DNA of 36,581 nt, taken from IMG/VR virus record IMGVR_UViG_3300045988_108325, positions 1 to 36,581 of that record; one strand, 5' to 3'. The position numbers and the translations under genes are program-made. This stretch comes from a virus. Each line of letters starts with the position of its first letter. Positions within the stretch are counted from its first letter, which is position 1. The notes beneath the pieces were generated by a model, which was given only the letters and a program-made list of their open reading frames with translations, had not been told where the DNA came from and did not search any database. Shown piece after piece: positions 3,674-19,707 of the stretch.

Positions 3674-4090
3674 ATGAGAGTAGAAGTCAGCAAGAAAGTG
3701 GCGAAAGAAATATTTATGGGGGATTTTAAAAATCTCCCTCTTGAATACACTAATTTAGATTCAGAAAACCCAATAAATAAAGAATTGTTAAATATAAGAC
3801 ATTCAAAACCAGATATTATAAGGGAAGAAGATTTTGACGGATTGAAATTTATGAGAGTTATTTTGAAAGAATCAGAGTATGACCATTTTTACAAACGCAA
3901 ACAATTTGAAGTGTTTGTTTTAGTCAACATCGAGGGATGTTGGTTTGTATCTTTATTTAAAGATAGTTCATCAATAGGTATCGGAACATCTTATACATTT
4001 ACAAAAGAGCAAATAGATATAATCGGCGAAAGAGTAAAAAACAACCAAACCATTATCAGCAAACAAAAAGATATAAAAATATCTGAATAA
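3674..4090 (+). CDS. hypothetical early protein, 138 aa, paralog of 3058..3453
   Basis: RBS ACGAGGG. Motifs shared with the 3058 product are described under that feature. Confidence 0.6.
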   Translation: MRVEVSKKVAKEIFMGDFKNLPLEYTNLDSENPINKELLNIRHSKPDIIREEDFDGLKFMRVILKESEYDHFYKRKQFEVFVLVNIEGCWFVSLFKDSSSIGIGTSYTFTKEQIDIIGERVKNNQTIISKQKDIKISE

Positions 4091-4110
4091 TGTTTTATGA
4101 GGAATAGAAA

Positions 4111-4446
4111 ATGAAACTAGAAGAAATCAAAAACGTAATTGAATGTATAGACGAAATTGTTAAAGAAGCAAGAGGATTGACAGAAACCGCCGAAAAAACA
4201 TCAATAGACACATTAAAAAATAATTATTTAATAGGGGAGACAGTAAAAATCTATGGTCGAGTGAAAGCGAATAATGCAAAAATAAATGTATTAGAATTGC
4301 GAATTAAAAGTTCAATTCTTAATCAGAGTGATATTGCAACAACTGTTGCGGTAGAAGAAATGTATAGAGCGTTACATTTTATTAGGGTCGATGTAGATAA
4401 TTTGAAAATGTTCTACAAAGAAAGCATTAAAAACTCAAAAAAATAG
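4111..4446 (+). CDS. hypothetical protein, 111 aa
   Basis: RBS GAGGAA. It is the last gene before the strong terminator at 4453. Confidence 0.5.
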   Translation: MKLEEIKNVIECIDEIVKEARGLTETAEKTSIDTLKNNYLIGETVKIYGRVKANNAKINVLELRIKSSILNQSDIATTVAVEEMYRALHFIRVDVDNLKMFYKESIKNSKK

Positions 4447-4452
4447 TACAGT

Positions 4453-4483
4453 AATGGCAGTCAAACGACTGTCATTATTTTTT
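4453..4483 (+). terminator. rho-independent terminator
   Basis: 10-bp stem AATGGCAGTC / GACTGTCATT with one G-U pair, loop AAAC, then ATTTTTT. Confidence 0.8.
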
Positions 4484-4513
4484 AAAAAAATCGAAAAAAG
4501 TTATAAAAAAGTG

Positions 4514-4542
4514 TTGACAATATATAACGTACATGATATAAT
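4514..4542 (+). promoter_or_regulatory. early promoter P2: TTGACA, 17 bp, TGaTATAAT
   Basis: Perfect -35 and -10 with TG extension. The spacer matches the other four copies. Confidence 0.85.
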
Positions 4543-4589
4543 GTAATTGTAAGTGAGAGATAAATAAAAACACAAAAGGAGCAATTAAC

Positions 4590-4850
4590 ATGACAAACTA
4601 TGAAAAACTACAAGCAGAGGCACAAAGAACAAAAGAATTAGTAACTCAAGCGGTTATCATTATACCTGAGGACGAACTAGAGTTTAGCGATATGAGAGAC
4701 ATCAAAAAACTAGCAGAACTAGTTGATGAAAAAGTAAAAATGACTGAGGGAAGAACAGAGGATAGAAGAGAAGAATCAGCTAGAATTAACGTACAATACG
4801 TTAGACATCACAACCAACGACTACTAGAAATCATTGAATCGTATAACTAG
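4590..4850 (+). CDS. hypothetical protein, 86 aa
   Basis: RBS AAAGGAG, first gene after P2. Confidence 0.5.
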   Translation: MTNYEKLQAEAQRTKELVTQAVIIIPEDELEFSDMRDIKKLAELVDEKVKMTEGRTEDRREESARINVQYVRHHNQRLLEIIESYN

Positions 4851-4861
4851 GAGGAGAAAGA

Positions 4862-5146
4862 ATGACATACTTTGAAGAATTAGAAAAAAGCACGGCAATC
4901 ATCAAGGCGCTAGGAGGAGAAATCCTCAAATCTAGCGCCAACGATGACGAAATAATGATTACATCACAAATTGTTAAAGATACAGTTTACCGCTTTAAAA
5001 GAGCGAAAGAAACGGGTTTAAATTCAAGACAATCATATTCAAGAGACGCACTAATTTTCGCAAGAGACGACATTAGAACACTTAAAAAAATCTATTCAGA
5101 GGCGTGTTTTGAACAATTAGAAAAAAATATTGAAAAAAGCCTATAA
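4862..5146 (+). CDS. hypothetical protein, 94 aa
   Basis: RBS AGGAGGAG upstream. Confidence 0.5.
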   Translation: MTYFEELEKSTAIIKALGGEILKSSANDDEIMITSQIVKDTVYRFKRAKETGLNSRQSYSRDALIFARDDIRTLKKIYSEACFEQLEKNIEKSL

Positions 5147-5151
5147 AACTA

Positions 5152-5180
5152 TTGACAACATATAACAAGCGTGATATAAT
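5152..5180 (+). promoter_or_regulatory. early promoter P3: TTGACA, 17 bp, TGaTATAAT
   Basis: Same architecture as the other copies. The spacer is more diverged (acatataacaagcgtga). Confidence 0.8.
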
Positions 5181-5217
5181 AATAATGTAAATAAGAGATA
5201 TAAAGGAGCAAACGAAA

Positions 5218-5718
5218 ATGAAACATTCAAGATGGAGCAAAAAAGACGGAACTTTAAAATTTGGAGATTTTGACAGAGACTACACATTCAAAGGTTTCAA
5301 ACCTGAACAATTCTTAAAATGTTCAAATAAATACGTTGAGTTAACAGGTTCTCACGTATCAGAGGATGGAAACAACGTTGTAATTAAAATCGCACCTAAT
5401 CATGTAATTCCAACAAAATTTGGCTTTGCAATCATTGTAGACGCAAAAAGAGTTGTATTTATCAAACATTGGCAAGTATGGGGCACATCATTTAAAGACG
5501 ATAGCTATATCGTATCTTTCAACCGTCAATTTTATCAAATTAAAGAATGGGGCGACCATTCAGCAGAATTTGGCGAATATGAAGACATCAATGAAAGCGA
5601 CATGGGAAACTTTGACAATCTTGTAAAACTAGCTAAAAAACAAGAAGAATATTACAACGGATATGACATTGACGAGGACGGCGATAAAGTTAGACGTTCA
5701 TTTATGTGGCACTGGTAA
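5218..5718 (+). CDS. hypothetical protein, 166 aa
   Basis: RBS AAAGGAG. The C-terminus is acidic. Confidence 0.5.
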   Translation: MKHSRWSKKDGTLKFGDFDRDYTFKGFKPEQFLKCSNKYVELTGSHVSEDGNNVVIKIAPNHVIPTKFGFAIIVDAKRVVFIKHWQVWGTSFKDDSYIVSFNRQFYQIKEWGDHSAEFGEYEDINESDMGNFDNLVKLAKKQEEYYNGYDIDEDGDKVRRSFMWHW

Positions 5719-18363: not shown

Positions 18364-18392
18364 GAGGCGCAATAGCGTCTCTTTTTTATTTT
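18364..18392 (+). terminator. terminator-like hairpin 13 nt upstream of the late-operon RBS, a candidate leader terminator or attenuator
   Basis: 7-bp stem GAGGCGC / GCGTCTC with one G-U pair, loop AATA, then TTTTTTATTTT. RBS AAGGAGG follows immediately. Confidence 0.55.
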
Positions 18393-18404
18393 AAGGAGGA
18401 AAAT

Positions 18405-19707
18405 ATGGAGATTGAAAGGCTCAAGATAAACGATTTACTGGAATATAAATATAACGCAAAAGAACATCCTGAATGGCAGATTGAACAGATTGTGAATAGT
18501 ATTAAACAATTTGGATTCAATGACCCTATTGCCGTTGATGAAAACAATACAATCATTGAGGGGCACGGCAGATTATACGCCTTGCAAGAAATGGGCGAAA
18601 CAGAGGTTGACTGTATCAGGTTATCTCATTTAGACGAGGAACAAAAACGGGCGTACATTCTAGCTCACAATAAGTTAACCATGAATACGGATTTTGACTT
18701 GGACTTGTTACAGTTAGAGCTAGATAACATCATTGATATTGATATGAGTGATTTCGGATTCACGATTGATGAAGAGGTAGAAAGCCTAAAAGATAAAATC
18801 AAAGAAAACGACTATGCAGGCTCAATTATTGATGATTTTATTATCATGCCTCAAACTATTTTCGATACAAGGCAAGGTCATTGGCAAGACCGTAAAAAGC
18901 AATGGATTGAGTTAGGAATAAAATCAGAACTAGGAAGAGCGGAAGACCTCACATTCGCCAAACAGTTACAAAGTAGCGGACTAGGTGGAACGAGTATTTT
19001 CGACCCAACATTATGTGAAATCTGCTATAAATGGTTTACCCCACACGAAAACGCAAAAATTATTGACCCGTTTGCAGGTGGGGGGGGTAAGAGGTATTGT
19101 TGCTGAAAGGCTAGGATTCACATATACAGGTATTGACTTACGTAAGGAACAGATTGACGCAAACTATACCAACGCTAAAGAAATTGGAACAGATACCGAT
19201 AAAATCAATTGGATATGTGATAATTCATTAAACGTTGATGAACACATTGAAGATGAAAGTGCAGATTTATTATTTACTTGTCCGCCTTATTTCGATTTAG
19301 AAGTTTATAGCGATGATGAGAACGATATTTCAAACATGACCTATGAAGACTTTTGCGAGGCGTATACAACTATCCTTAAAAAGTTCGCAAACAAACTAAA
19401 GGATAATAGATTCGCAATAGTAGTGATTAGTGATGTACGAGATAAGAGAGGCTATTATAGAGATTTGACAGGTATCACGAAACAAGCGTTCAAAGAAATT
19501 GGTGCGCTATTCTACAACGACATCATTCTAGTAAACGTTACAGGCTCAGGAGCATTGAGAGCTAGAAAACAAATGAATAGTGGGCGTAAAGTTATCAGAA
19601 CTCATCAAAATGTATTAGTGTTCTTTAAAGGAAATCCTAAAGAAATCAAAAGTGAATTCGGTCCAATAGCATTACTAGATAAGCTAGAGGATACGGAAAA
19701 AGAATGA
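18405..19707 (+). CDS. ParB-like nuclease domain fused to a DNA (N6/N4) methyltransferase, split into two ORFs by a +1 frameshift at a G8 homopolymer (19079-19086)
   Basis: ParB N-terminal domain (FNDPIAVDENNTIIEGHGRLYAL). Removing one G gives DPFAGGGVRGIVAERLGFTYTGIDL (methyltransferase motif I). Motif IV TCPPY is downstream. RBS AAGGAGG. Confidence 0.8.
19079..19086 (+). repeat. G8 homopolymer tract at the frameshift point of the ParB-methyltransferase gene
   Basis: Read directly from the sequence. G7 would restore the frame. Confidence 0.9.

Follow-up and report, generated by a model that had tools for sequence, protein, structure and literature searches.

A poly-G tract in the SAM-binding motif of a ParB-methyltransferase gene, a probable contingency-type locus in an uncultured human oral phage

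Switching by poly-G and other homopolymer tracts is already known both for phage DNA-modification genes and for bacterial methylases. The methylase gene of Bordetella phage BPP-1 has a poly-G run of variable length (Liu 2004, as relayed in PMC4791379 and bioRxiv 10.1101/2025.10.21.683753). In phage T2, A-run homopolymers in agt, which encodes an alpha-glucosyltransferase, have been shown experimentally to be reversible contingency loci, with agt mutants evading modification-dependent restriction and later showing a reversion about 1000-fold faster than that of point mutants (bioRxiv 10.1101/2025.10.21.683753). Campylobacter Fletchervirus phages contain poly-G tracts of 7-11 residues within ORFs and form ON/OFF subpopulations (Sorensen 2021, Cell Rep 35:109214, as cited in bioRxiv 10.1101/2025.10.21.683753). 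On the bacterial side, the systems known as phasevarions involve the Mod methylase of Type III R-M systems, which is phase-variable in Haemophilus, Neisseria, Helicobacter and Moraxella (PMC6902483, PMC5149525). Finally, fusions of a ParB fold to an N6_N4 methylase form a phage-enriched architecture of unproven role (PMC12704722), and ParB domains have been proposed to guide DNA-modification enzymes at packaging (PMC8256090).

Here, we describe a gene of this fused architecture that is interrupted at a run of eight Gs. It is found in a stretch of viral DNA of 36,581 nucleotides (IMG/VR record IMGVR_UViG_3300045988_108325), which was analysed at its full length and is referred to below as the window. 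As judged from sequence comparisons between strains, the window probably carries the OFF allele of a phage methylase whose SAM-binding loop harbors a slippage-prone, hypermutable locus of the contingency type.

The interrupted gene and its setting

The methyltransferase gene is frameshifted at a G homopolymer eight residues long on the + strand, and all features discussed here are collected in Table 1. The sequence from 19074 to 19106 reads GCA GGT GGG GGG GGT AAG AGG TAT TGT TGC TGA, and the C-terminal end of the upstream ORF is DPFAGGGGKRYCC, followed by the stop. The rest of the methylase is found in ORF 18985-19707, which lies in the +1 frame relative to ORF 18405-19106. This split into two ORFs had been described in an earlier note made from the letters of the window, and it is borne out by the sequence. 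The G8 run reported in that note is also real, although it was placed one position too early, at 19079-19086, where 19079 is in fact a T. Likewise, the claim that either G7 or G10 restores an intact gene is correct: removing one G (G7) creates a single frame of 433 aa and adding two (G10) creates one of 434 aa, while G6, G8 and G9 are out of frame. The fused protein, whether from G7 or G10, contains DPFAGGGVRGIVAERLGFTYTGIDL, and the repaired protein displays, as the note had stated, the two motifs expected of a methyltransferase, that is, motif I (DPFAGGG, residues 221-227) and motif IV (TCPPY, residues 291-295, within an FTCPPY stretch spanning residues 290-295). It is within motif I, which binds SAM, that the gene is broken.

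The tract is the only G/C homopolymer of eight or more residues in this 36.6-kb window with a GC content of 36%. Matches to G7 or longer number three in the window, against a mean of 0.56 in dinucleotide shuffles, and 4 of the 100 shuffles reach three. A second long run, the G7 at 1194-1200, is located inside an intact ORF (874-1302; 142 aa; phrog_4257), where it encodes ...NLGGNGE.... Since that ORF is unbroken, a second split-gene site at this position is ruled out.

Table 1. Features of the interrupted gene in the window, and tract alleles of the strains in the census
Feature or strain	Position or source	Strand	Tract or motif	Remark
Terminator-like hairpin	18364-18381, T run after	+		upstream of methylase gene
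Ribosome-binding site	18393-18399	+	AAGGAGG	precedes ATG 18405
Whole interrupted ParB_N-N6/N4 DNA methyltransferase gene	18405..19707	+		433 aa at G7; intact 433-aa homologues, 96% identity
ORF1, putative OFF-allele product	18405..19106	+		233 aa, TGA stop
Motif I codons (FxGxG SAM-binding loop)	19065..19085	+	DPFAGGG	D221, F223, A224, G225, G226 family-invariant
G8 homopolymer	19080..19087	+	G8	relatives: G7 where in frame, G8 or G6+C where broken
+1-frame methylase remainder (V228-E433 + stop)	19088..19707	+		open, undamaged
Motif IV codons (catalytic (D/N/S)PPY-type)	19276..19290	+	TCPPY	+1 frame; C292, P294, Y295 invariant
L001	SAMEA10741111		GGA-G7	in frame
L002 / L003	SAMEA10740944; ERZ27319509		GGA-G7	in frame
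L004 / L005 (79% nt identity)	SAMN26268039; SRR18150572		GGA-G7	in frame
L178-180	SRR31504478-80		GGA-G7	in frame
L181	ERR15003723		GGT-G7	in frame
Window / L008-L012	ERR589621, ERR589687 + others		GGT-G8	out of frame
L173	ERZ27279277		GGA-G8	out of frame
L177	SRR17239184		GGA-G8	out of frame
L174-176	SRR11562297-9		GGA-G6, next T changed to C	out of frame

Pfam assigns the repaired protein to N6_N4_Mtase (PF01555), with a score of 49.5 bits against a cut-off of 26.7. At its N terminus there is a weak ParB_N match, of 16.6 bits against a cut-off of 26.3, which is a single-sequence score; nearly all close homologues have a precomputed PF02195 match, and G53, H54 and R56 in the ParB-like domain are invariant in the family. 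In an alignment of 33 family sequences, every invariant residue is present in the repaired protein of the window, and the residues around DPFAGGG and TCPPY are invariant and common to 32 homologues. The first residue of motif IV is a Cys, which is unusual. Full-length homologues with about 52% identity exist in Listeria phage B054 and Enterococcus phage phiFL3A, while a search for a solved structure or a characterised homologue close to the methylase found none. The gene is directly upstream of the genes for the small and large terminase subunits. We infer an anti-restriction role for the methylase, and an orphan phage ParB-methylase of this kind presumably acts on phage DNA.

In public annotation the gene is represented by two CDSs, ORF2 by itself being annotated as PF01555, and the exact protein encoded by ORF1 is present in NCBI nr (DAV68508.1, "MAG TPA ... 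Caudoviricetes sp."). That gene callers annotate two CDSs could be taken literally, with one ORF giving a ParB protein and the other a methylase protein and the two cooperating, the more so as stand-alone methylase homologues lacking a ParB domain do exist (the phiCTP1 protein aligns from residue 140). However, we find such a functional split scarcely credible because the break is at motif I, inside the methylase domain, and not at a domain boundary. ORF1 consists of the ParB-like N-terminal domain and a linker, followed by ~85 residues from the start of the methylase domain as far as motif I and by five out-of-frame residues, KRYCC. The +1-frame remainder has neither a Shine-Dalgarno sequence nor an ATG start of its own. 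Gene callers start it at GTG 19078 or TTG 19072, the former of which is missing from the GGA-G8 alleles, and its first ATG is at residue 311. Moreover, the family is dominated by intact single-ORF forms. As the break falls within motif I and there is no proper start in the downstream frame, the OFF product would be a ParB-only protein.

As for the phage itself, all the credible genes in the window are on the + strand, and no integrase-sized gene or divergent lysogeny gene was seen in it. Related contigs are all 35-37 kb in length, and the portal protein of the window is at most 47% identical to that of any cultured phage. The element looks like a complete siphovirus-type genome from an oral Bacillota host, and the phage is probably virulent. 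Several 4-base palindromes are much rarer in the window than Markov expectation, with observed counts of 0 for GATC (~123 expected), 2 for GGCC (~57), 3 for CCGG (~37) and 7 for CGCG (~66). No GATC was found either in 12-20 kb of each of seven relatives (L001, L002, L173, L174, L177, L178 and L181). GATC is hence ruled out as the target of the enzyme, and a bet-hedge between DpnI and DpnII, which concern that same sequence, is rejected because the genome and its relatives contain none. The palindrome avoidance itself looks like passive restriction-site avoidance operating alongside the methylase. DNA-modification genes appear to be swapped in and out of the slot upstream of the terminase genes. 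In one related lineage (L183, positions 3823-5407; also L182 and L184), this pre-terminase slot contains a ParB-only gene split into ORFs of 44 and 71 aa, with an extra C in GACCCCTATTGCG, followed by a 113-aa ORF and by a PF20691 TET-associated glycosyltransferase gene split into ORFs of 155 and 122 aa. The DNA-modification genes of that lineage look truly decayed.

Tract alleles in natural strains and the origin of the run

Our census consisted of two protein clusters at 90% identity, drawn from a collection of 15 billion proteins, for which DNA was fetched in order to make strain calls. It comprises nine distinct tract-bearing strains, five of which are in frame (all G7) and four out of frame (the window and two others with G8, and one with G6+C). 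In all four broken alleles the lesion is located in the tract and nowhere else. The exact 233-aa ORF1 is found on eight contigs, and the five that were retrieved are all G8 and all identical to the window. Contigs of the window type were assembled from at least two runs (ERR589621 and ERR589687, from a human oral metagenome project) and from three assembly pipelines. One of them (L009), with 99.87% identity, was considered as a diverged G8 strain and rejected, since its differences are scaffold Ns and it is the same clone. The window-type contigs thus represent one identical clone, which may have a single person or cohort as its source. Forms of the window's own strain with G6, G7, G9 or G10 are absent from the 15-billion-protein collection.

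Indels at homopolymers are a frequent type of error, all the data are metagenome assemblies, and one relative (L096) is frameshifted at an A7 run. These points speak for a sequencing or assembly error that hides a true G7 and an intact gene, an explanation that we nevertheless consider quite improbable. The same G8 was obtained in MEGAHIT, scaffold-based and Logan assemblies and in both of the above runs, and the same sequence context assembles as an in-frame G7 in other strains, which means that there is no systematic bias from G7 to G8. In three replicate sets, the tract of a given strain has the same length whatever the run or assembler, with agreement across three runs each for the G6+C strain (L174-176) and for one of the G7 strains (L178-180). 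In addition, one base is substituted in the G6+C allele, which does not look like an error. Project PRJEB6997 was sequenced on Illumina HiSeq, and consensus errors of Illumina HiSeq at 8-mers are rare.

When the gene and 17 kb of the window were used as queries, no DNA match of near identity was found in GenBank phages. A scan of genome contigs returned only distant relatives, at most 63% identical, and tract variants were sought by pattern in IMG/VR and JGI metagenomes, with no matches. The intact 433-aa proteins with 96% identity come from the 15-billion-protein collection, and their contigs are syntenic with the window at ~91% DNA identity. In these intact relatives the site reads GCA GGA GGGGGGG TA, corresponding to G7 and in frame.

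With 160 more relatives retrieved from genomes and IMG/VR, motif I could be located in 156 of 172 loci. The motif I region reads AGGSV in 142 of the 156, and AGGGV encoded with GGG GGG G is present only in the immediate clade of the window. Residue 227 is a Ser in more than 90% of the relatives and a Gly (GGG) only in that clade. This distribution rejects the tract as a conserved feature of the family. Since AGGGV with GGG GGG G is confined to the window's clade, the alignment of motif I indicates that the G7 run was created by a Ser-to-Gly change at residue 227 and is not an old family feature. At the nucleotide level, GG. GG. AG. G would have become GG. GGG GGG G, that is, a run of seven Gs. 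The clades of the P0003 lineage and of the window group form a polytomy at ~85% identity, which is compatible with one or two origins of the tract.

The tract-less AGGSV sister clade (P0004 cluster, 78 members) is full length, at 435-437 aa, in 11 of the 15 members listed. Three of its shorter members that were read (P0142, P0147 and P0137) have lesions elsewhere and none at motif I. Among distant methylase relatives in IMG/VR there are frame breaks elsewhere, at 3990-4000 in L096 (the A7 run), 4146-4155 in L105 and 3360-3366 in L151, and the background of broken alleles in metagenome-derived copies of this family is about 2%.

Selection on the broken alleles and what the tract may do

If the tract alone is normalised, each of the four broken alleles reads as a clean 433-aa ORF, free of any stop or frameshift elsewhere. 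In a neighbour-joining gene tree, the window is sister to a G7 strain (L001), and the three other broken strains (L173, L174 and L177), which group at 94.5-95.4% identity, are nested among G7 strains. The tree requires at least three independent tract changes. In the half of the methylase 3' of the tract, dN/dS (Nei-Gojobori) is 0.037-0.073 for OFF-OFF pairs at a dS of 0.20-0.35, which is essentially the same range as the 0.014-0.045 of ON-ON pairs. Nonsynonymous changes account for 6-9 of the 29-41 differences between OFF alleles, against 0.80 expected under neutrality (P <= 2e-10). As there are 100 single-step routes to a stop codon in this downstream half, it would not remain open at that divergence without selection.

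Together, the tract-only lesions, the purifying selection and the replicate agreement lead us to reject both a lone sequencing error and a decayed pseudogene as explanations of the G8, and they make an artefact unlikely. At the level of sequence comparison, a real hot spot of mutation is evident in a gene kept functional by selection. Of the two origins of the G8 weighed in the earlier note, sequencing error is thus unlikely in view of the identical G8 from at least two runs and three assembly pipelines. The decayed, fixed pseudogene, which it had allowed for, is refuted by the lack of a second lesion, the presence of the invariant residues and a dN/dS of ~0.05. The comparison with homologous genes of related phages that it had suggested reveals G7 and an intact gene in five strains. 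The phase-variable switch it had put forward is supported between strains, with G7, G8 and G6 interleaved on the gene tree and at least three events, and we infer that switching may be reversible and frequent within one population.

The mechanism that we propose is the following. Slipped-strand mispairing at replication would cause the tract to gain or lose a G. G7 (or G10) would be the ON state, producing the full 433-aa ParB-methylase, and G8 would be the OFF state, producing the 233-aa ParB-only protein and leaving the methylase body untranslated; in G6 the frame would be broken too. Natural phage populations would each be dominated by the ON or by the OFF state, so that virion DNA would be either methylated or unmethylated at the target of the enzyme. 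The ON state would protect from host restriction, while the OFF state would spare the phage a cost or an attack by methylation-dependent restriction. The truncated ParB product may keep a role. Counting against a switch, the tract is restricted to one small clade and is not family-wide. Tracts of G7-G8 are also among the shortest expected of classical phase variation where the host is proficient in mismatch repair.

The same hot spot might instead lead to one-way loss. The methylase would be conditionally dispensable, G7 would be its most mutable site, and OFF alleles would sweep locally and end as dead ends. We regard this as unlikely, though as an explanation to be taken seriously. While four of the nine strains are OFF, a second lesion is found in none of them, and the strong purifying selection in the OFF-OFF divergence implies that OFF lineages are either very young, with a very high forward rate, or reverting. 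Furthermore, GGG GGG has not been swapped for safer synonymous codons despite a dS above 0.5. In favor of loss, the slot is dispensable in relatives, with other lesions in the tract-less sister clade (P0142, P0147 and P0137) and, in a related lineage, a ParB remnant and a TET-associated glycosyltransferase instead, both of them frameshifted. The absence of a G7 revertant of the window strain from the 15-billion-protein collection points the same way.

The immediate surroundings of the tract are unusually conserved. Both tract codons are GGG in nine of nine strains, while four-fold sites are invariant in 22% of cases, which for two codons only corresponds to about p = 0.05; GGG is the rarest Gly codon (14%). 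The tract and the next 31 nt (19080..19118, + strand) form the longest nucleotide-invariant stretch of the gene in eight strains, 38 nt in G7 numbering. The eight strains, with a synonymous divergence of 0.2-1.1, all have the same 31 nt 3' of the tract (TAAGAGGTATTGTTGCTGAAAGGCTAGGATT). These 31 nt are rich in rare codons (AGA, AGG and CTA), to which the tract adds GGG GGG, and no RNA structure is predicted for 19080-19118. The invariance of GGG GGG and the conservation of the 31 nt are weak hints that favor maintenance of the tract, and the invariance of the 38-nt neighbourhood could equally come from recombination. It is possible, if somewhat doubtful, that the tract is an evolved and maintained contingency locus that hedges between hosts whose defences are methylation-sensitive and hosts whose defences are methylation-dependent, with the 31 nt being part of the device.

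Conservation of the 31 nt 3' of the tract in eight strains would also fit programmed recoding, in which G8 is the working form and is read through by a +1 ribosomal slip on GGG GGG G or by slippage of RNA polymerase. A +1 slip of tRNA-Gly on GGG_GGG_G would give the exact wild-type sequence, and three OFF alleles cluster on the tree and are under purifying selection. We nonetheless deem recoding very improbable, since five of the nine strains are in frame, whereas programmed sites keep the shifted configuration. There is no downstream structure, the fold of 19060-19160 (-13.7 kcal/mol, z = +2.08) being less stable than shuffles, and the A site has neither a slow nor a stop codon, the next zero-frame codon being the common GGU. 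Moreover, one strain (L004) has the tract without the conserved downstream sequence. Low-level, unprogrammed leakiness of the G8 allele is possible.

Implications and comparison with known switches

What the OFF-allele reading of the window adds to the known cases is evidence from natural populations of an uncultured human oral phage, and an origin of the tract by a Ser-to-Gly change in the SAM loop. Should the switch be both real and reversible, methylated and unmethylated genomes would always be present together in one phage stock. The host range and the restriction escape of uncultured oral phages would then need rethinking, and the laboratory claim of phage contingency loci in DNA-modification genes would gain support from natural populations. 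In practical terms, a "split" gene of this type, deposited as two CDSs, should be annotated as one gene with a tract-dependent frame, and not as an error or a pseudogene.

The architecture of the oral phage protein is that of the surveyed fusions between a ParB-CTPase fold and N6_N4 methylases, with which it shares the combination of PF02195 and PF01555 and the association with phages and prophages; homopolymer switching, however, is not described in that survey (PMC12704722). In the Fletchervirus phages, as cited above, the tracts are in genes for receptor-binding proteins and alter host range rather than DNA modification. The likeness to phasevarions lies in a simple-sequence repeat within a methyltransferase ORF that leads to random ON/OFF expression. 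Phasevarions, however, are chromosomal parts of R-M systems that reprogram host expression, whereas the oral phage has an orphan ParB-methylase beside packaging genes.

BPP-1 offers, in the secondary accounts cited above, a phage DNA methylase gene that is broken or restored by a variable G homopolymer, as we propose for the oral phage. BPP-1 belongs to another phage group, being temperate, with a high GC content and a Gram-negative host, and its methylase lineage is apparently unrelated to that of the oral phage. The BPP-1 case comes from isolate genomes, whereas ours comes from nine natural strains and tests of selection. The T2 agt loci differ in being A-runs of a virulent coliphage with its own polymerase, as opposed to a poly-G tract in a phage of a low-GC host that is documented by sequence. 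In both T2 and the oral phage, the homopolymer is in a phage DNA-modification gene in which a +/-1 frameshift would switch modification off, and in T2 this amounts to bet-hedging between defences against modified and defences against unmodified DNA.
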